64,000 nt of DNA from a virus (taxonomy: Duplodnaviria > Caudoviricetes): IMG/VR virus record IMGVR_UViG_3300042539_001740; one strand, given 5' to 3'. The notes under the pieces were generated by a model. That model had not been told where the DNA came from and did no database searches. It was given only the letters and a program-made list of their open reading frames with translations. This document shows positions 985 to 57,795 of the stretch, piece after piece; within the stretch, counting starts at the first letter, position 1, and each line of letters begins with the position of its first letter. The position numbers and the translations under genes are program-made.

Positions 985-3108
985 ATGTCAATCAAGGTTA
1001 AAATTTCTATTTACTTTTCAGTTTTAATTATGTCAATTTTCTTTATAATGAAGATGATTTCATTATTTTTTATAAATGACGCACTACAATTAATCAAAAT
1101 AATTGAATTATCTTGTTTTATTGTTTTTTTACCATTCTTTTCAATCTTGGTAAAAGAATATACTAATAAATTAAAACATAATATAAAATTAACACAATAC
1201 TCCAAAAAACTTAACAAAGTTCTTATATCACAATCACACAATTCATTATTTTATCAAGGAAATGTAAAGGATGGGGCAAAAACTTTAACAAAGGAAGTAA
1301 CAGAATCAATTGATGCTGATAGATGTTCAATTTGGTTATATAATTCAGATAAAACCTCAATTATCTGTCAACAACTTTATATTAAAAAAGAAGATGAATG
1401 GTATAGTGGGGCGGAAATGTATAAAAAAGATTTTATCGCCTATTTTGAACACTTAGAAATCAATCCGATTATTATTGCAAACAATGCTGAAACTCATACC
1501 GCAACATATTGTTTTGTTGAAGGGTATTTGAAACCCCTTGGTATTAAATCTATGTTGGATGTTCCAATTATGTACAGAGGCGATGTAATTGGTGTTGTGT
1601 GTATTGAGAGTAAAACATTAAGGGAATGGATTGGATTAGAAGTTAACTTTGCTCAAATGTTATCATCACTATATTCTTTTGCTTATTCGGTTAAAGAAAG
1701 TAATATTTTGAGAGGTAATTTACAAGAGTTCGAAAAGTTTGTTGATACATCTGTTTTGGTTTCTAAAGCGGACAATAAAGGTAGAATAACATATGTAAAT
1801 AAAAAGTTTGAGGAAGTATCTGGATGGTCTTTAGATGAAGTAAGAGGAAAAGACCATAGTATTGTTAATTCGGGTAAACATCCCAAGGAGTTTTGGGCTA
1901 ATATGTACAAAGATGTTGTCGTTGAGAAAAAGATTTGGAATGAGATTGTTACAAATAGGGATAAAAATGGTAACTTATATTGGGTTGATTCATATATAAA
2001 AGGTGATTTTGATGAAAATGGTAAGTTTTTGGGGTATATGTCAATCAGATATGATGTAACAGAAGTCAAGAAAAAAGAAATTGATATAAAAAATAGGATG
2101 AATGCTATTAATACATCGAATATGGTTATTGAGTTTGATTTGGATGGTAAAATTATGTTTGCTAATAGTTTATTCTGTGAAAAAATGGGTTATGAAGAAA
2201 AAGAATTAAAAGGTAAACATCATAAGATTTTTGTTTCAAAGGAATATTCAAAATCTCCTGAATATAAAGAGTTTTGGAAATTGTTAAAAAGTGGAGAATA
2301 TGTTACTGATGAGTTTTTAAGGTTTACTAAAGATAAAAACAAAGTTTGGATTCAAGCTTCATATAATCCTGTATTTGATATAGATGGTAAAGTACAAAGA
2401 GTAATGAAAATTGCAACAGATATAACTGATAGAATTACACAATCAATAGAAATTGAGAAAAAGAACACTTATTTAGAACACGCAGCAAAGATTCTAAGAC
2501 ACGATATGCACTCAGGTATTAACACATACATACCTAGGGGAGTTAGTTCATTAGAACGAAGATTAACTATTGAACAAATAGAGGAGTTAAAAATAACAGC
2601 ACCATTTAAAATGATTAAAGATGGGTTGAGCCATGCTCAAAAAGTTTATAAAGGTGTTTATGAATTTACAAACTTAGTAAAAAAAGATGTTGTATTAAAT
2701 AAAACAGAATGTAATCTAAAAAGTATTTTAGAAAGTTACTTAACAACAACCTCATACAAAAGTCAGGTTCATATCGAGGAATTAATAACTAAAGATGTGA
2801 ATGAGTCATTGTTTTGTACATCAATTGATAATCTGATAAGAAATGGTTTGAAATATAACGATTCTGATACGAAATTTGTTAAAATATTTATGGAGGGGGA
2901 TTTGTTAATAATACAAGATAATGGTAGAGGAATCACTCAACAAGATTTCGACCATTTATCAAAACCATATACAAGAAAAGAAGGACAAAAAGAGAGTGGT
3001 ACAGGATTAGGGTTAAATATTTGTGTTGCAATTTTAGAAGAACACGGATTTGAAATTACATGTGAAAAAAATGATATTGGTACTAAAATGAAAATAAACA
3101 TAAAATAA
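985..3108 (+). CDS. Sensor histidine kinase (2 TM - GAF - PAS/PAC - PAS/PAC - HisKA-like - HATPase_c)
   Basis: GAF (DADRCSIWLYN...SMLDVPI); two PAS (ITYVNKKFEEVSGW; FANSLFCEKMGY...WIQASYNPV); H-box-like ILRHDMH; N box NLIRNGLKYN; G boxes DNGRGI and GTGLGL. Confidence 0.9.
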   Translation: MSIKVKISIYFSVLIMSIFFIMKMISLFFINDALQLIKIIELSCFIVFLPFFSILVKEYTNKLKHNIKLTQYSKKLNKVLISQSHNSLFYQGNVKDGAKTLTKEVTESIDADRCSIWLYNSDKTSIICQQLYIKKEDEWYSGAEMYKKDFIAYFEHLEINPIIIANNAETHTATYCFVEGYLKPLGIKSMLDVPIMYRGDVIGVVCIESKTLREWIGLEVNFAQMLSSLYSFAYSVKESNILRGNLQEFEKFVDTSVLVSKADNKGRITYVNKKFEEVSGWSLDEVRGKDHSIVNSGKHPKEFWANMYKDVVVEKKIWNEIVTNRDKNGNLYWVDSYIKGDFDENGKFLGYMSIRYDVTEVKKKEIDIKNRMNAINTSNMVIEFDLDGKIMFANSLFCEKMGYEEKELKGKHHKIFVSKEYSKSPEYKEFWKLLKSGEYVTDEFLRFTKDKNKVWIQASYNPVFDIDGKVQRVMKIATDITDRITQSIEIEKKNTYLEHAAKILRHDMHSGINTYIPRGVSSLERRLTIEQIEELKITAPFKMIKDGLSHAQKVYKGVYEFTNLVKKDVVLNKTECNLKSILESYLTTTSYKSQVHIEELITKDVNESLFCTSIDNLIRNGLKYNDSDTKFVKIFMEGDLLIIQDNGRGITQQDFDHLSKPYTRKEGQKESGTGLGLNICVAILEEHGFEITCEKNDIGTKMKINIK

Positions 3109-5475: not shown

Positions 5476-5574
5476 GTTAAAAAGGTTTGGATTAATTTTT
5501 TATAACAAATGTTTGTGAGTAGAATTGACTACATAAAAAATAAACAATATAATTCAAACAAAAACGAACAAAAT

Positions 5575-7440
5575 ATGAGTAAAATTATTGGAATCGATTT
5601 AGGGACTACAAACTCGTGTGTAGCCGTAATGGAAAATGGAGAACCAATTGTAATAACAAACAATGAAGGTAAAAGAACAACCCCTTCAATCATTGGATTT
5701 GTTGACAATGGTGAAAGAAAGATTGGAGACCCAGCAAAAAGACAAGCTGTAACCAATCCTGACAAAACAATTTATTCAATCAAACGCTTTATGGGCTCAA
5801 ATTATGACGAAACCAAGTCAGAGGTTAAGAGAGTTCCTTATAAGGTCGTAAAAGGGAAAAACAACACCCCAAGAGTAGAGATTGATGATAAACAATTCTC
5901 ACCTCAAGAAATCTCAGCAATGGTGTTACAGAAAATGAAACAAACTGCTGAAGATTATTTGGGTCAAGAAGTAACTGAAGCCGTTATCACAGTTCCTGCT
6001 TACTTCAATGATGCTCAAAGACAAGCAACAAAAGAAGCTGGTGAGATTGCGGGTCTGAAAGTTAAGAGAATTATCAATGAACCAACTGCAGCTGCTCTTG
6101 CTTATGGTCTTGATAAGAAAAACAAGGACTCTAAAATCGTTGTTTTTGACTGTGGTGGGGGTACACACGATGTATCTGTACTAGAATTAGGTGGTGGTGT
6201 ATTTGAAGTATTATCAACCGATGGTGATACACACTTAGGTGGTGATGACTTTGACAATGCTATTTCTGATTGGTTAAAAAACGAGTTCAAAAATGAGAAC
6301 AATGGTGCTTGGAATGATGATTCTATGGCAATCCAAAGGTTAAGAGAGGCAGCTGAGAAGGCAAAAATTGAATTATCTTCATCTCAAAGTACTGAAATTA
6401 ACTTACCTTACTTTATGGTAATTGATAATCAACCAAAACACCTTGTAAAAACACTTACAAGAGCAAAGTTTGAACAAATTATTGATAAATTGGTTGAAAG
6501 AACGATTGCACCTTGTAAATCAGCTCTTAAAAACGCTGGATTGACAATTAATGACATTGATGAGGTTATTTTGGTTGGTGGTTCTACTAGAATCCCTGCA
6601 ATTCAAGAAGCAGTTAAGAAGTTTTTCGGAAAAGAAGCGTCAAAAGGTGTAAATCCTGACGAAGTTGTTGCTTTGGGTGCTGCGATTCAAGGTGGTGTAT
6701 TAGCTGGTGATGTAAAAGATGTTCTTTTATTGGATGTTACCCCACTTTCATTAGGAATTGAGACAATGGGTGGTGTAATGACAAGATTAATCGAAGCAAA
6801 TACAACAATTCCAACCAAAAAGTCACAAATCTTCTCAACTGCGGTAGATAATCAACCTTCTGTTGAAATTCACGTAATACAAGGTGAAAGACCAATGGCA
6901 AAAGACAACAGAACTATTGGTAGATTCCATTTAGATGGTATTCCACCATCAATGAGAGGTATTCCTCAAATCGAAGTTACTTTTGACATCGATGCAAATG
7001 GTATTATCAATGTTTCGGCCTTAGACAAGGGAACAAACAAACAACAAACGATTAGAATTGAGTCATCATCTGGACTTTCACAAGAAGAAATCGACAGAAT
7101 GAAGAGAGAAGCTGAGGAAAATGCTGAAAGTGATAAATTAGCTAAAGAAAAAGCTGAAAAAATCAATGAGGCTGATAGTACAATCTTTAATATTGAGAAA
7201 ACTTTGAAGGATTTGGATGAAAAAATCTCTGATGAACACAAAGAAGAAGTTAAAAAAGGTTTGGAGGAATTAAAAGAGGCTAAAAACACTGGTGAAATTG
7301 AAAAAATTGACCCTGCGTTAGATAATGTTAATTCAATTATGCAAAAAATTACCCAAGAACTTTATAGTAATGTGAGTGAACAAACTGAAAACACTGATGG
7401 TTTTACAGGTTCAGATGTAGAGTTTGAAGAAGTAAAGTAA
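5575..7440 (+). CDS. dnaK: Chaperone DnaK (Hsp70)
   Basis: [50 protein letters not shown]; likely start 5575 rather than 5509. Confidence 0.98.
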
Positions 7441-11380: not shown

Positions 11381-11677
11381 ATGATTAATCCAGAATTAAA
11401 GGTTGGTGATAGAGTTATTCTACTAACTATGGAAGGTGAACCAAATATGACTTACGAAGGAGGTGTTGTTGTTCCTATAGATAAGTTTAATAATCCATAT
11501 GTAGTTGTGTTTGGACACAAACAATATAATGTCAAATGGGATAATGGCAGAACTTATAATTTATTAGAAGATGCTGATAAGTGGATGTATGAAAAAGATT
11601 TTAACAAAAAAAAGAAAAAGAAAAAAATAGAAGAAAGTTATACCATAACAAAAAAACAATTATTGGATAACATTTGA
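11381..11677 (+). CDS. Hypothetical protein (SH3-like start LKVGDRV)
   Basis: ORF with TATTTAT motif at 11358-11364. Confidence 0.6.
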   Translation: MINPELKVGDRVILLTMEGEPNMTYEGGVVVPIDKFNNPYVVVFGHKQYNVKWDNGRTYNLLEDADKWMYEKDFNKKKKKKKIEESYTITKKQLLDNI

Positions 11678-15843: not shown

Positions 15844-17559
15844 ATGAATAAGTATAAAATTTTCGAACAATATAAACAAGATGAACCTTTAGAAAAGTTC
15901 AAAGCTATAGAAAACCCAATTTTGAGAGCAGCTGCCGCGGCGAATTGTTTCCCTGAAGGATATGTAATTACTCAACATCCAGAAACAAATGAATTAGTTA
16001 TTTCGGCTTTGAGTAAAAAACCTGAAAACGCGAACAACAAGTTTGTTTATTACAAACCAGATTACACTTTAGAATATCGTACAACAAATGATAAAACAGG
16101 TAAAGTAGCTAGAACTTCAAAATGGAGTTGTTATGCTTTGTTAGAACGAACAAATCCTGAGACATCAAAAGTTCAACAAGAATTGTTATCAGCTTTAGAA
16201 AATAGTTTAGGTTGGAAACAATTTGCAAGTGTACAAGGTAATGACATATTAAATTATGATATAACTGATGTTGCGAAAGACCCAGACTTAAAACCTGGTG
16301 GTATGTATTATAATGTTGTAAAAGGATTACAACAATATATGGATGATTTAGTTAGTTCTAATAGACCATTCTATATGTGGAAAACTAAAAAGAAGGGGGT
16401 TGGAATTAAAAAAATGGAAGATGAACAAAAAAGAATTTTAGCACTTCCTGAGTTTTCGGGGTACAAGATTTGTTCAGTACCTGAACCTGAAAAGGGACCT
16501 GACGACATTATCGACATCGACATTAAGTATCCTGATTACTTTGAAAAAGGTACTAAACTTTGTAAGCCTATGTCTGATTTTTCCCCTAAACAGATTTATA
16601 GTAAAACCTTATCATTGGTAGAAAAACTAGGTAAAGGGGCTAACAAAAAAGATTGTAGAAACCTAATTTTGTCCTATTACGAATTGATTCAAAAAGAAAT
16701 TCCAATTAACCAAAACACTATTGACAAAATAAAACCAATTGTAAGAAATTGTTCAACTGCAATAAATTTTCCTGGTCTTAAAGATAAAATACAATATATG
16801 CAACGAATAAAAATTAGAGGTGGACAAGGTAATATATTAAATTATAGCCTTAAAGAATCAAAGAATGATGAACTTTCTACACTAGTATCAGAAAGTTTAA
16901 CAAGATTGAAAATTCAAAAAACAAAGAAGTTTATTACTGAAGGAAGAGAAGTAAGAAAAAGAATTGAATTCATTTTCGAAAGTATTGAGGTAAAGAATAG
17001 AAAGGATATTGAACTATTAGCTGATTGTTTATTGGGTGAAATGGTAAGATTGAGAAACGAGGGGTTTGATGAAATGATAATCAGTGAACAGATGGGTTTA
17101 TTATCAAACCTCACTAATTTTTTTACAGGTGGAAAAGGTGGTGACTTTTTATCAGGTCTAAAGGGTGCTGCAGGTGGAGGTTTAATGTCAACCGTTATTG
17201 AAACTATAGCAGGTGGTATCCTAAAAACAATGGGTATCGACCCTAAAGGAACTTTGGGTACTTTAATTTTAAAAACAATTACAAACCTAACACCAGCTGA
17301 CTTCCCTAAATTAAGTGATTGTAGATTTGTTTCAGGTTTAATCACAAAAAGTGTAATGGAAACTATTGCGGCTGAAGCGACAAAAAGTATTGGTGGAAAA
17401 ACTATGGTTGGAAGTTTTATCGAAAACACTCTATTCGAATTAGGTGAAGAAAGTGAAATATTCCAATCAATTAAGAACTTTATTGGTGATAAAATTGTTT
17501 GTCCATACCTAGAAGGTAAAGGTGGAAATGTTTTATCAAGTATTTTTGGAAAAAAATAA
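15844..17559 (+). CDS. Large hypothetical virion protein with Gly-rich hydrophobic C-terminus
   Basis: 571-aa ORF with TATTTAT motif at 15823-15829 and LKES/ISE motifs. Confidence 0.7.
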   Translation: MNKYKIFEQYKQDEPLEKFKAIENPILRAAAAANCFPEGYVITQHPETNELVISALSKKPENANNKFVYYKPDYTLEYRTTNDKTGKVARTSKWSCYALLERTNPETSKVQQELLSALENSLGWKQFASVQGNDILNYDITDVAKDPDLKPGGMYYNVVKGLQQYMDDLVSSNRPFYMWKTKKKGVGIKKMEDEQKRILALPEFSGYKICSVPEPEKGPDDIIDIDIKYPDYFEKGTKLCKPMSDFSPKQIYSKTLSLVEKLGKGANKKDCRNLILSYYELIQKEIPINQNTIDKIKPIVRNCSTAINFPGLKDKIQYMQRIKIRGGQGNILNYSLKESKNDELSTLVSESLTRLKIQKTKKFITEGREVRKRIEFIFESIEVKNRKDIELLADCLLGEMVRLRNEGFDEMIISEQMGLLSNLTNFFTGGKGGDFLSGLKGAAGGGLMSTVIETIAGGILKTMGIDPKGTLGTLILKTITNLTPADFPKLSDCRFVSGLITKSVMETIAAEATKSIGGKTMVGSFIENTLFELGEESEIFQSIKNFIGDKIVCPYLEGKGGNVLSSIFGKK

Positions 17560-17570
17560 TTTTAAAGAAA

Positions 17571-17658
17571 CCTGTGAGGTAGGACTCACATGGGATAAAC
17601 TCGACTAAAGAAAGGGAGGTATCCAACATCTACCAAAAGGACGTTTACACGTCCTTTT
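17571..17658 (+). ncRNA. Candidate structured RNA carrying an extended Shine-Dalgarno-like sequence, ending in a terminator
   Basis: Hairpin CCTGTGAG/CTCACATGG; AGAAAGGGAGGTATCC at 17609-17624 with no start codon behind it; terminator AAAAGGACG-tttaca-CGTCCTTTT. Confidence 0.45.
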
Positions 17659-17662
17659 GTGT

Positions 17663-18154
17663 TTAATAGAATGTTGTTTTGAATTCTTCCCAAATATCCC
17701 CAACTGATGAATTGATTATATCTGAAAATATAGTTGGTTCATAAGGTTTAATATTCATTTTCATATTTGCCTCGTCTGGTGTTCTATCACCCTTCAATCT
17801 ATTACAAGATGAACAACAAGTTACTAAGTTCATCCAAGTATTTTGTCCACCTTTAGATTTTGGTATAATATGGTCTATTGTAAGGTTTCTTTTACTTCCA
17901 CAATAAGTACATTCGTGACCATCACGTTTATATAATCTATGTCTATTGATTTTCAATTTATGAACTCTGAACTTGACAAAGTTTAATAATCTGATAATTA
18001 ATGGACGTATAAATTCACCCATACCTGATAATAAGGGTTTGTCACTCGCTTTTAACACTTCAGCTTTTCCTTTACTTACTAAAGTAAATCCTTTATAAAC
18101 ACTAGTTACATTAATAGGTGTAAAATCCGCATTCAATACTAGTACCTTTTCCAT
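17663..18154 (-). CDS. HNH endonuclease (McrA/HNH_5-like)
   Basis: VLVLNADFTP, RDGHECTYCG, TIDHIIPKSKGG, NLVTCCSSCNRLK. Confidence 0.9.
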   Translation of the reverse strand: MEKVLVLNADFTPINVTSVYKGFTLVSKGKAEVLKASDKPLLSGMGEFIRPLIIRLLNFVKFRVHKLKINRHRLYKRDGHECTYCGSKRNLTIDHIIPKSKGGQNTWMNLVTCCSSCNRLKGDRTPDEANMKMNIKPYEPTIFSDIINSSVGDIWEEFKTTFY

Positions 18155-51372: not shown

Positions 51373-53136
51373 ATGAGTTTAACAAAAGAACAAGTAATGA
51401 TAGAATATGTAAGATGTATGAAAGATACACCTTACGCATTAAGAACATACCTTGAAACATATGACAACACAGTTTCAAAATATGTCCCACTAGAGTTGTT
51501 TCCTGACCAAATATCATTATTAAATGACTACGAGGAATACAATGAAAATATTGCCTTGAAGTACAGACAAGCAGGAGTATCAACAGTTACGGCAGCATGG
51601 ATATCTAAAAGAATAGCGTTTGCTAAAAAAACAAAACCTGAAAAGATTTTGATTATCGCAAATAAACTAGATACTTCTATGGAAATGGCCAATAAAATCA
51701 GGATGTTTATTGGACAATGGCCATCTTGGGTTGGTATTGATTTTTCAAGTGATAAAAATTCACAAAAACACTATAAAACAAATAATGGTTGTGAGGTAAA
51801 AGCTGTTGCTACCTCTAAGGATGCCCTACGTGGTTTCACACCAACAATTCTTGTATTTGATGAAGCTGCGTTCATTGATGCAGATTCTGACTTCTGGGCA
51901 GCTTGTATGGCCTCACTTTCTACTGGTGGTAAAGTTATTGTGGTGTCAACACCAAATGGTTATGACCCAATTTATTATGAAATATATAATCAGGCACATA
52001 GAAATATGAATGATTTCAAAATATCTGAAATGTTTTGGTACAGAGACCCAAGATATACAAAAGATTTATTTTTAGTTAAAACTCAAGATACTATTCACTA
52101 CCTTCTAAACAAAGAAGAATATCCTAAAGATGAAATTATTAGTTGGGAAACTATACCATTTGAAGAAAGAAATTTTGAGGAACTCAAGTTGATAATGGAT
52201 TCAGGTTATAAACCTTGTTCTTCTTGGTTTGAAGGTATGGTTAAAAAATTGAAATATGATAAAAGAAAAGTATCACAAGAGTTAGAGTGTAACTTCCTTG
52301 GTTCAGGTGATAACGTTTTTGATTCACTATTGATGCAAAGGGTAAAAGAGAATATGATTAGAGAACCCCAAAATAAAATGATTGGTAACTCTTTATGGAT
52401 TTGGAAAGAACCTGTGATGGGTCACAAATATGTGATGGGTGTGGATGTGAGTAGAGGGGATAGTGAGGACTTTAGTTCATTTCAAATTATTGACTTTGAT
52501 GAAAGAGAACAAGTTGCGGAATATGTGGGTAAACTTCCACCTGATACGATGGCAGAAATTTGTTATAAGTGGGGTAATATGTATAATTGTTTCATTGTAA
52601 TAGATATAACAGGAGGAATGGGTGTTTCAACATCTAGAAAACTTCAAGAAATGGGTTACAAAAATTTATATGTTGATGGTATTGATTTAGCCAATAAGTG
52701 GAAATATGACCCAAAGGCTTTAGAAAAGATACCGGGTTTAAATTTCAACAACAAACGTGTACAAATTATAGCATCATTTGAGGAAGCTATGAGACATCAG
52801 TTTAAAATTTATAGTTTACGATTATTCAATGAAATGAATACATTCGTATATGTAAATGGAAGACCAGACCATCAAAAGGGTCAACACGATGATTTAATTA
52901 TGTCAATTGCAATGGCAACTTATGTTGCGGAATCATCATTCAGTAGTTTAGAAAAGGTGACCGAACAAACTAAAGCTATGTTAGAATCTTGGTCTGTTAC
53001 TAACAATGAAACTGCAGCTAAACAGATTGATTTCAATCCCGTGATACCTTTTGGAACTGAGAGAATTAATCAAAGAAATCAAAACGCAAGTAAGGAGGAC
53101 TATATGAAATACTCTTGGTTATTCGGAGGTAGATAA
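51373..53136 (+). CDS. terL: Terminase large subunit (T4 gp17-like)
   Basis: LKYRQAGVST Walker A, LVFDEAAF Walker B, VSTPNG, GVDVSRG, HDDLIMS. Confidence 0.95.
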   Translation: MSLTKEQVMIEYVRCMKDTPYALRTYLETYDNTVSKYVPLELFPDQISLLNDYEEYNENIALKYRQAGVSTVTAAWISKRIAFAKKTKPEKILIIANKLDTSMEMANKIRMFIGQWPSWVGIDFSSDKNSQKHYKTNNGCEVKAVATSKDALRGFTPTILVFDEAAFIDADSDFWAACMASLSTGGKVIVVSTPNGYDPIYYEIYNQAHRNMNDFKISEMFWYRDPRYTKDLFLVKTQDTIHYLLNKEEYPKDEIISWETIPFEERNFEELKLIMDSGYKPCSSWFEGMVKKLKYDKRKVSQELECNFLGSGDNVFDSLLMQRVKENMIREPQNKMIGNSLWIWKEPVMGHKYVMGVDVSRGDSEDFSSFQIIDFDEREQVAEYVGKLPPDTMAEICYKWGNMYNCFIVIDITGGMGVSTSRKLQEMGYKNLYVDGIDLANKWKYDPKALEKIPGLNFNNKRVQIIASFEEAMRHQFKIYSLRLFNEMNTFVYVNGRPDHQKGQHDDLIMSIAMATYVAESSFSSLEKVTEQTKAMLESWSVTNNETAAKQIDFNPVIPFGTERINQRNQNASKEDYMKYSWLFGGR

Positions 53137-55172: not shown

Positions 55173-55889
55173 ATGAAATTTGGTATAATTAAATCGAAAA
55201 TTGATAAGATTTTGTTGGAATCATTTTCCAATAAAAATGAATTTAAATCTGAACTTAAAAATTTTCAAAATACAATTTTAGAAAATAAAAATCTTACTAA
55301 ATTATTTTGGATTTATGATGAATTAAAAAATAAATCAAACATAGATAGTACGATTGTTAACGACTATGTTAATGAAACTATTAACCAATACAAAAATATT
55401 GTGAGCAAAATTAACCCAAAGAAATTGAGGAAACTTGAACTATGGGTTGAGGGTGTTGATGTTGAAAACGAATATACTGACATTGACAATTTGTTTTCTG
55501 ATAGTGTTCTAACTATTGAACAAAAAATTAATAGTAGAAAGAAAATAACAGAATCCCTTAAAAGAAAGGTTAAAAAAGAAAAAGAATCAATTAATTTACC
55601 AATATCAACAATGGTTAATATAGCAAATAAAACAATCAAAAACTACGTACAACAATTAGACGAAAACACTAAGGGTAAGTTGTTGAGATTTCTTTCTTCA
55701 GATGTTACTGAAATGGAATCTAAGTACAAAGTAGTTAAAGAAAGTGTTTTAAATAAACTAAGTAACATCAAACAAAATTCAGAAGAAGAAGTAGTCACCA
55801 AAATTGATGAAACAATTTCGAAGATTACAAATGAAAAGTTTGATAAATTGAATTTATTTAGATTGGAGGAATTGGATAATAGTATCTAA
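55173..55889 (+). CDS. Hypothetical head-module protein
   Basis: ILLES/ILEN/ITES motifs; lies between portal and bS21. Confidence 0.75.
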   Translation: MKFGIIKSKIDKILLESFSNKNEFKSELKNFQNTILENKNLTKLFWIYDELKNKSNIDSTIVNDYVNETINQYKNIVSKINPKKLRKLELWVEGVDVENEYTDIDNLFSDSVLTIEQKINSRKKITESLKRKVKKEKESINLPISTMVNIANKTIKNYVQQLDENTKGKLLRFLSSDVTEMESKYKVVKESVLNKLSNIKQNSEEEVVTKIDETISKITNEKFDKLNLFRLEELDNSI

Positions 55890-56077
55890 TCTATTTTATT
55901 TTTGATTTTTTGAACATATTTTGCTTTGTTCAATTCAGTTCTTCTTTTGACTGAATTTTTAACAAATTCCTTTCTGTTTTTTAACTCAGTCATCAATTTG
56001 GTCTTGATAACTTTACTTTTAAAAAGTTTCAAGGCCTTTTCTATTGGTGTTTTATTATCGACTTTGATTATTAGCAT
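55886..56077 (-). CDS. rpsU: Ribosomal protein bS21
   Basis: MLIIKVDNKTPIEKALKLFKSKV...ELKNRKEFVKNSVKRR; antisense within the head module. Confidence 0.88.
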   Translation of the reverse strand: MLIIKVDNKTPIEKALKLFKSKVIKTKLMTELKNRKEFVKNSVKRRTELNKAKYVQKIKNKID

Positions 56078-56171
56078 ATGATACAAATATTTGTTAAAAC
56101 AATTTATTTTTGACTATTAAGTAAATATCCCCTATTTTTATGAAAAAATAAACTGAAAATGTTACAAATTA

Positions 56172-57629: not shown

Positions 57630-57795
57630 TTTTTTTATCTAATTAAAAAATAAAGGAGGACTTTGTTCCTCCTTTTTTCATTTTATAGATTTTGGGGATA
57701 TTTATAAATAAACTTTTTTGGGTTTGTTTATAACTCTACAAAAGTTTTTTTAAAGTATTAACATATTTATAGAATAAAAATACAAAAAACCAAAA

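Follow-up and report, generated by a model that had tools for sequence, protein, structure and literature searches.

Here, we describe a conserved RNA element of about 100 nucleotides (nt) at positions 17564-17664, plus strand, of a 64,000-nt stretch of DNA from a T4-like phage of the Caudoviricetes (IMG/VR record IMGVR_UViG_3300042539_001740; hereafter, the window, meaning this whole stretch). The element contains a long complement of the 3' tail of Bacteroidia 16S ribosomal RNA (rRNA) and ends in a terminator. It looks like the initiation region of the host rpsU mRNA, which encodes the ribosomal protein bS21, with a longer helix and without a start codon. We propose, with a probability of roughly 30-40%, that this RNA might be a decoy of the rpsU leader that captures small (30S) ribosomal subunits devoid of bS21, evicts the host bS21, or both.

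In Bacteroidia, the anti-Shine-Dalgarno (anti-SD) sequence is buried by bS21, bS18, and bS6, and an extended Shine-Dalgarno (SD) sequence, the only kind of SD that is read, is present only on rpsU and is recognized by bS21-free ribosomes alone (PMC9976891). The 16S tail of Flavobacterium johnsoniae is GGAACACCUCCUUUCU, with the complement AGAAAGGAGGTGTTCC (oligonucleotide T1, PMC13000453); the oligonucleotide AGAAAGGAGGU binds F. johnsoniae 30S subunits (PMC7797042), and a 13-base-pair (bp) SD-anti-SD helix has been found to expel bS21 by cryo-electron microscopy (2026, PMC13000457). McNutt et al. (2023, PMC9976891) have speculated that bS21 phages encode products aiding bS21 exchange and that the autoregulation of rpsU is a host counter-defense. 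Among ribosomal proteins, bS21 is the one most frequently encoded by phages, and the element described here, a specific conserved short RNA of bS21 phages that could form a helix longer than the expelling 13-bp one, bears on how the phage copy displaces the host protein.

The original prediction, made from the sequence of the window, had suggested that the unit of hairpin, extended SD, and terminator be sought in other phages, and the unit is indeed conserved in relatives. An exact 15-mer scan of IMG/VR retrieved 47 loci, 21 of which have the whole unit in common, with compensatory changes in both outer stems, and the looser pattern GGGATAAAC...AAGAAAGGG, combined with a metagenome scan, yielded about 47 viral loci with about 60 distinct sequences, lake metagenomes being the main source. 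Assembled contigs, those of DNA runs included, break at the element because it is shared by several strains. These relatives were reached through DNA patterns and not through the 571-amino-acid (aa) protein encoded upstream of the element, for which a search of IMG/VR returned no relatives. Against 596 Gb of bacterial and archaeal genomes (GTDB), the family pattern gave chance matches only, and nothing in Rfam 15, which includes CRISPR repeats, tracrRNA, ribozymes, and riboswitches, was detected at gathering or E-value thresholds; the literature searched likewise contained no such phage RNA, so that the element adds a family absent from Rfam. The best sub-threshold Rfam matches scored 15-22 bits against thresholds of 39-70, with mostly the terminator being matched, and a CRISPR-repeat mimic, that is, an anti-CRISPR RNA, was discarded because its sole support was a 15-bit match of this kind. 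A covariance model detected exactly one copy of the element in each of five phage records, two of which are complete genomes of 290 and 321 kb.

Conservation sets in abruptly, 0-10 nt past the stop codon of the upstream gene, and the sequence before the block is unrelated between relatives. In loci that were retrieved through the HNH endonuclease encoded downstream, and hence independently of the element, the 43-nt core is 84-100% identical to the window, compared to 46-64% identity at the third codon positions of the HNH gene; judging by these identities, the core is under purifying selection.

The block opens with a conserved leader, AAAGAAACC (17564-17572; family consensus AAGAWACC), at which this abrupt onset falls, and all its parts lie on the plus strand. 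Hairpin 1 (17573-17590) consists of a 6-bp stem (17573-17578/17585-17590), which is free to vary in sequence and covaries, and the loop GGUAGGA. The nearly invariant hairpin 2 (17592-17624), as delineated in minimum free energy (MFE) folds, includes the 5' arm GGGAUAAAC, an A-rich loop ending in AAAGAAAG, and the 3' arm GAGGUAUCC, with a GGAUA/UAUCC stem at 17593-17597/17620-17624 (z = -3.6). The extended SD-like complement of the 16S tail, AGAAAGGGAGGUAUCC (in DNA, AGAAAGGGAGGTATCC), was assigned to 17609-17624 from duplex energies; its 5' half lies in the loop and its 3' half in the stem of hairpin 2. A spacer (17625-17634) holds the AUCUA motif (17628-17632), which, like GGGAUAAAC, is invariant in the alignment columns. 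The element is closed by an intrinsic terminator (17635-17664), with a GC-rich 10-bp stem, AAAAGGACGU/ACGUCCUUUU (17635-17644/17649-17658), the loop UUAC, and, on the transcribed strand, the U-run UUUUGUGUUU. No ATG, GTG, or TTG is found 3-13 nt after the purine motif. The original prediction had given the motif complementary to the 16S tail with this sequence and these coordinates, between a hairpin and a terminator, possibly displayed in a GGATA/TATCC loop and with no start codon behind it, and our analysis agrees on each of these points. Two additional pairings were examined and rejected: that of the leader GAUACC with GGUAUC, which is only 74.5% paired, with one compensatory case (L209), and is disfavored relative to hairpin 2, and a pseudoknot between GGUAG of the hairpin 1 loop and CUACC, which fits the window's group only and shows no covariation.

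The outer stems vary in the manner expected of folded RNA. Across 32 variants, all six pairs of hairpin 1 are altered on both sides, as are six of the eight pairs of the terminator; the alignment contains 13 pairs with double changes, and 92.5% of its cells are paired, compared to about 50% when the partners are slid. In hairpin 2, 94.5% of the cells are paired and a single pair covaries (CUC:GAG to CC:GG). The fold is more stable on the plus strand for hairpin 1 in 35 of 42 variants and for the terminator in 44 of 52, and G-U pairs are more numerous on this strand than on the minus strand (14 vs 5 in hairpin 1; 37 vs 0 in the terminator). Both stem covariation and G-U pairs assign the RNA to the plus strand. 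A reading frame through the core is excluded by a 1-nt indel among relatives (ACTAAAG vs ACTAAAAG), which bears out the noncoding status originally assigned to the element; a small protein-coding open reading frame (ORF) was rejected on account of this indel and of the unrelated upstream sequences. The element is very probably a functional plus-strand RNA.

Transcription from the other strand, which the original prediction had entertained, would instead yield a mimic of the 16S 3' tail (GGAUACCUCCCUUUCU) that could titrate bS21, bS18, or bS6. The reverse complement resembles the tail by construction and the terminator is roughly bidirectional, but both hairpins are less stable on the minus strand, where the G-U pairs become A-C mismatches and the element would be reached only past the HNH gene's terminator, and nothing would drive minus-strand transcription in genomes that lack this gene. 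With the position of the element right after a plus-strand stop codon also speaking for the plus strand, we regard such a mimic as extremely improbable.

Conservation could also act on DNA, with the element being a recognition or homing site of the HNH enzyme or the product of gene conversion accompanying homing. The HNH gene (17663-18154, minus strand; 163 aa, with Pfam and PHROG matches) is adjacent to the element and convergent with the upstream gene, and shows the presence-absence pattern typical of free-standing homing endonucleases, enzymes that target conserved sequences, as the Seg and Mob enzymes of T4 do. The element, however, is equally conserved without the HNH gene, recent conversion cannot explain the identity of the core given the divergence at the third codon positions of HNH, and in two helices, compensatory changes as well as strand-specific G-U pairs attest to selection on RNA folding, all of which makes a DNA-level origin of the conservation highly unlikely. 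The HNH gene follows the element in most relatives and is missing from six loci (L073, L074, L078, L083, L097, and L100), and one locus, L069, has the HNH gene without the element; the RNA thus belongs with the 3' end of the 571-aa gene. The HNH gene is probably a free-standing homing endonuclease outside the RNA and looks like one that uses the conserved RNA gene as a landing site.

We then compared the purine tract with 16S 3' ends read from Bacteroidota genomes, with duplex energies set against those of 300 composition-matched shuffles per variant. The family consensus AGAAAGGGGGUAUUCC, which most members share and from which the window's GGGAGGUAUCC differs, pairs with all 16 bases of the natural Bacteroidia tail GGAAUACCUCCUUUCU, through 15 Watson-Crick pairs and one G-U pair, at -27.2 kcal/mol, compared to -26.1 kcal/mol for the perfect complement. 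The original prediction had aligned the motif to the complement of a different tail (GGAUCACC/GGAUCACCUCCUUUCU) with one insertion and one deletion; the complementarity as such holds and is better than claimed, whereas the choice of tail and the indels do not, since GGAAUACCUCCUUUCU accommodates the consensus without any. For each of the 17 distinct variants, there is a natural Bacteroidia tail with which it pairs at -20 to -27 kcal/mol, whereas the shuffles average -8 kcal/mol and none of the 300 per variant matches the observed energy. Pairing of the rpsU type involves at least 9-13 consecutive bp with nt 1532-1544 at less than -13 kcal/mol; the phage elements have 11-16 paired positions, with energies from -20.8 kcal/mol for the window to -27.2 kcal/mol. 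The window's variant accounts for the former energy, with 11 uninterrupted pairs or, if one bulge is allowed, 15.

Variation within the family is also suggestive of tail pairing. The 5' part of the hairpin 2 loop is free to vary and the sequence becomes fixed from (A)GAAAG on, where pairing with the 3' terminus (...CUUUCU) begins. The 3' parts of the variants, UAUUCC, GAUAUUCC, GAUGUUCC, and GGUGUUC, are each the exact complement of some natural tail (GGAGGUAUCC is a further phage variant): GAUAUUCC, from L079, is that of GGAAUAUC, and GAUGUUCC, from L073, that of GGAACAUC, as is GGAGGUGUUC, from L088, that of GAACACCUCC. Besides GGAAUACCUCCUUUCU, the natural Bacteroidia tails include GGAAUACCUCCUUUUU, which is typical of Chitinophagales, an order in which GTDB also places Saprospiraceae. 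Tails of the form GGAACACC... occur in Flavobacterium-like and in most sampled Cytophagales genomes, and GGAACAUCUCC..., GGAAUAUCUCC..., GGAUUACC..., GGAACAUC, and GGAAUAUC are other forms found in Bacteroidia. Tail complementarity points to Chitinophagales-like bacteria with GGAAUACC tails as the putative hosts of most family members. A narrower expectation, that AUCC in the window tracks hosts with the GGAUCACC tail, was weakened, with GGAUCA tails proving rare among the sampled Cytophagales; in both GGAUCA genomes for which rpsU was inspected, the encoded bS21 lacks the signature tyrosine. As a separate observation, the 16S tails of Bacteroidia (GGAACACC, GGAAUACC, GGAACAUC, GGAAUAUC, and GGAUUACC, with endings UUUCU or UUUUU) are more variable than usually assumed.

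When both strands of the window were scanned for pairing with 16S tails, the element site came out best, at -19.6 kcal/mol, with a runner-up at -19.5 kcal/mol. The latter (11455-11468, plus strand; pairing site listed at 11445) lies within the ORF 11381-11677, where AAGGAGGTGTT is an 11-nt perfect complement of the tail GGAACACCUCCUU. It encodes E-G-G-V-V, is not conserved in homologues, and is probably a chance match; the element site stands above chance because, unlike this one, it is conserved. We consider it somewhat more likely than not that the element functions through pairing with the 16S tail.

If the likeness to an SD were incidental, the element would be a structured RNA whose GGGAUAAAC, purine tract, and AUCUA bind a protein of the phage or the host or pair with another RNA. 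Invariant hairpin 2 arms together with AUCUA are typical of RNAs that contact proteins or ligands, purine-rich tracts readily pair with a pyrimidine tail through G-U, and bS21 itself binds other RNAs such as OLE (PMC12054373). Against this explanation stand the pairing of the full 16 bases with a natural tail, at energies that shuffles fail to reach for every variant, the match of the variant 3' parts to natural tails, the occurrence of GGGGGUAU in a host rpsU leader as well, and the lack of any complementary target within the window; we consider it unlikely.

The element was further compared with rpsU leaders taken from genomes with known 16S tails. A Flavobacterium-type leader has the form GAGAGGAGGUGU-7 nt-AUG, and those from genomes with GGAAUACC tails the forms GAGAGGAGGUAUUUC-6 nt-AUG, AAAGGAGGUAUAAC, and AAAGGGGGUAUCAUUCC-AUG, the last of which contains the same unusual GGGGGUAU as the phage consensus. 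Host rpsU leaders, we observed in passing, covary with the tails, for instance GGAGGUAUUUC with GGAAUACC. The phage element and the rpsU leader both have a purine tract able to pair with at least 13 bases of the 16S tail, among them the linker located 5' of CCUCC. They also share the type of sequence (for hosts whose tail is GGAAUACC, GGAGGUAUU or GGGGGUAU) and a distance of about 7 nt to the P-site position, and both belong to a lineage in which ordinary genes are devoid of SD. The invariant CUA of AUCUA is placed, in almost every phage variant, 7 nt downstream of the U that would face 16S position 1532, that is, where the rpsU mRNA has its AUG. The window's group has lost a U in UAUUCC and gained a C in AACAUC, and because these two changes balance, the 7-nt spacing is retained.

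There are also differences. The start codon about 7 nt past the helix and the coding sequence that go with an rpsU leader are absent from the phage element, which instead follows an unrelated phage gene at its 3' end, with the terminator coming within 25 nt of the CUA position. It is also embedded in a conserved hairpin with invariant flanks, its complementarity is longer, up to 16 nt, and it is encoded by a phage whose own bS21 gene is SD-less.

It is conceivable that the element initiates a tiny frame, either AUC followed by UAA or UAG or, in the window, 12 codons, and serves as a sensor read by bS21-free ribosomes. The invariant AUCUA is found at the SD-to-start distance, and AUC-UAA or AUC-UAG is present in most members of group 2. 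Yet in L080 and the window's group, UAC comes next and the frame continues into the terminator; AUC initiates translation very poorly; in the rpsU register, the P site would be occupied by CUA and not by AUC; and there is no gene downstream to regulate. A start of this kind is therefore quite improbable.

Under the reading that we favor, the RNA would act as a start-codon-less mimic of the extended SD leader of the host rpsU mRNA. It would be made late in infection, a timing proposed because the upstream gene has a late-promoter-like TATTTATA box, and would either remain the 3' end of the 571-aa gene's mRNA or be released from that transcript by processing into a small RNA. The first 6-7 bases, the loop toehold AGAAAG, would pair with a free 16S 3' terminus, and the helix would then extend by opening the weak hairpin 2, so as to cover 16S positions 1529-1544, including the anti-SD. 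In this manner, the RNA would capture 30S subunits whose tails are free because they lack bS21 and would compete with the rpsU mRNA for such subunits, blocking the re-supply of host bS21. It could also help to evict resident host bS21, given that bound bS21 and so long a helix exclude each other sterically. The SD-less phage bS21 could then repopulate the ribosomes late in infection. Transcription of the element, its binding to 30S subunits, and all the downstream consequences are what we infer. The trapping of 30S subunits that lack bS21, which the original prediction had put forward, would be consistent with the published biology of rpsU and bS21 and with the likeness to rpsU leaders. More tentative still is the full scenario, in which the RNA pries host bS21 off through a 15-16-bp helix, decoys rpsU, and shuts down the autoregulatory counter-defense so that the phage paralog takes over, with the variants tuned to the tails of their hosts; we deem this chain of events possible but doubtful.

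The phage bS21 is presumed to be the functional partner of the RNA. In agreement with the original description of the phage as bS21-encoding, the bS21 gene was identified at 55886-56086 on the minus strand (Pfam PF01165); it encodes the Bacteroidia signature tyrosine (KAKYVQ) and has no SD. All 10 long contigs that bear the element encode bS21, and all the phage bS21 genes examined are SD-less and retain the signature tyrosine (Tyr54). In the window, the gene is located 38 kb from the element and on the opposite strand, so that the element does not precede bS21.

Several considerations weigh against the decoy interpretation. All carriers of the element belong to one phage lineage, and its co-occurrence with bS21 is accordingly confounded by common descent. 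The window's variant needs a bulge and pairs no more strongly than the unconserved chance site mentioned above. Owing to G-U pairing, G-rich purine tracts are promiscuous partners of pyrimidine tails, and all four combinations at positions 1533 and 1535 occur naturally, so that any purine variant would find some partner; the matches between variants and tails are suggestive but do not amount to demonstrated phage-host covariation. Half of the complement of the 16S tail is sequestered in hairpin 2, and GGGAUAAAC and AUCUA, which are equally invariant, are not explained by tail pairing alone. Finally, the phage's own translation could also suffer from an RNA that removes or blocks bS21.

The location of the element brings up a different possibility, namely, that it is a cis-acting 3'-end element of a late mRNA, in which the SD-like tract tethers 30S subunits or 70S ribosomes near the terminator, without any role in bS21 exchange. 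Such a tether might act as a 3' counterpart of STAB-SD, protecting the long late transcript from decay at its 3' end, or prevent terminating ribosomes from leaving the message. In every relative, the element starts 0-10 nt past the stop codon and ends in the terminator, no conserved promoter was detected upstream of it across the relatives, and tail complementarity would serve this purpose equally well. There is also a precedent in the STAB-SD of Bacillus cryIIIA, an SD-like stabilizer without a start codon, which is thought to bind the anti-SD of 30S subunits near the 5' end of the mRNA and thereby to block 5'-to-3' decay. The phage element shares with STAB-SD an SD-like sequence that is not for initiation, but instead of residing in a 5' leader, it is placed between a stop codon and a terminator, its complementarity is far longer, and its host is SD-blind, whereas STAB-SD operates in an SD-using host. 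A tether is further disfavored by the occurrence of a single copy in a genome of about 300 kb, where many late operons would profit, by the hidden anti-SD of normal Bacteroidia ribosomes, by the action of the known STAB-SD at the 5' end against 5'-to-3' decay, and by the rpsU-like spacing to the invariant CUA, for which a tether has no need. This explanation, too, appears improbable to us.

Sponge and decoy RNAs and small RNAs (sRNAs) derived from 3' untranslated regions, such as the GlmY/GlmZ decoys and the SroC-type sponges, offer another point of reference for the proposed decoy. Like these, the element is a short, terminator-ended RNA that is probably released from the 3' end of an mRNA and is proposed to titrate its partner by target mimicry; it differs in that the proposed partner is an rRNA tail and not an sRNA or a regulatory protein. 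The closest known phages are the freshwater Bacteroidetes bS21 phages (Chen 2022, PMC9723584), which belong to the same lineage and have the same layout, with a reverse-strand bS21 gene between the terminase, portal, and capsid genes; there, ribosome takeover late in infection has been proposed. That work deals with the protein only, and in the sections consulted and by keyword search of it, no RNA element, SD-like element, or exchange mechanism was found. The element is a concrete candidate for how these lake phages take over the ribosome and, if the proposal is true, would be the first RNA-based ribosome-remodeling factor of a virus. The 16S tail variant of a host could, moreover, be readable from the phage genome, an aid to predicting the hosts of uncultured lake phages.

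The phage itself has a G+C content of 31% and a T4-like gene complement, with the gp20 portal, the gp23 capsid protein, and the large terminase, in addition to 21 transfer RNAs, a transfer-messenger RNA, and the bS21 gene on the reverse strand. The intergenic gap at 17560-17662 separates the convergent 571-aa ORF (plus strand) and 163-aa HNH gene (minus strand). The upstream late gene (15844-17559), whose stop codon precedes the conserved block by 0-10 nt in all relatives, encodes a protein that belongs to no Pfam or PHROG family and for which a protein atlas also gave nothing; its homologues are only 22-33% identical in aa sequence, yet precede the element in nearly all loci. The HNH protein is 64-92% identical across relatives and 80-92% identical in the window's subgroup, far above the neighboring genes, and its gene contains a 71-bp stretch with 79% identity to Synechococcus phage S-CRM01.

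A scan of IMG/VR with GAAAGGAGGTRTTCC retrieved mostly ordinary gene starts or coding sequences of unrelated phages and added only one locus, L348, to the family. This 134-kb, bS21-encoding contig contains a divergent member (31 bits with model R1), in which GAAAGGAGGUAUUCC is perfect and GGGAUAAAC is lacking. A late-promoter-like ATATTTATA box follows the upstream stop codon and precedes the SD-like tract by about 80 nt, a hint that the RNA can be transcribed from a promoter of its own. Two AT-rich IMG/VR contigs of about 39 kb, L270 and L357, contain a T4-type TATAAATA box with GAAAGGAGGTATTCC and a T-run after it but no start codon; these sites may represent an unrelated second kind of start-less extended SD. 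On these partial contigs, bS21 was not found.

The original prediction had described the protein genes of the window as having A-rich starts without SD, and this applies to about 90 ORF starts, none of which has an SD and whose upstream regions are A-rich. The sole canonical pairing of an SD with an ATG seen in the window is at 53092-53135 (plus strand), at the very end of the terminase gene, where AAGGAGGACTAT is followed by an ATG and a 10-codon frame (MKYSWLFGGR). At 57653-57674, after a DUF4494-like gene, there is a terminator hairpin of AAGGAGG...CCTCCTT, a palindrome that resembles SD and anti-SD. Among the unusual auxiliary genes of the phage are those for a GAF-PAS histidine-kinase-like protein (985-3108) and a full-length Hsp70 (DnaK; 5509-7440).

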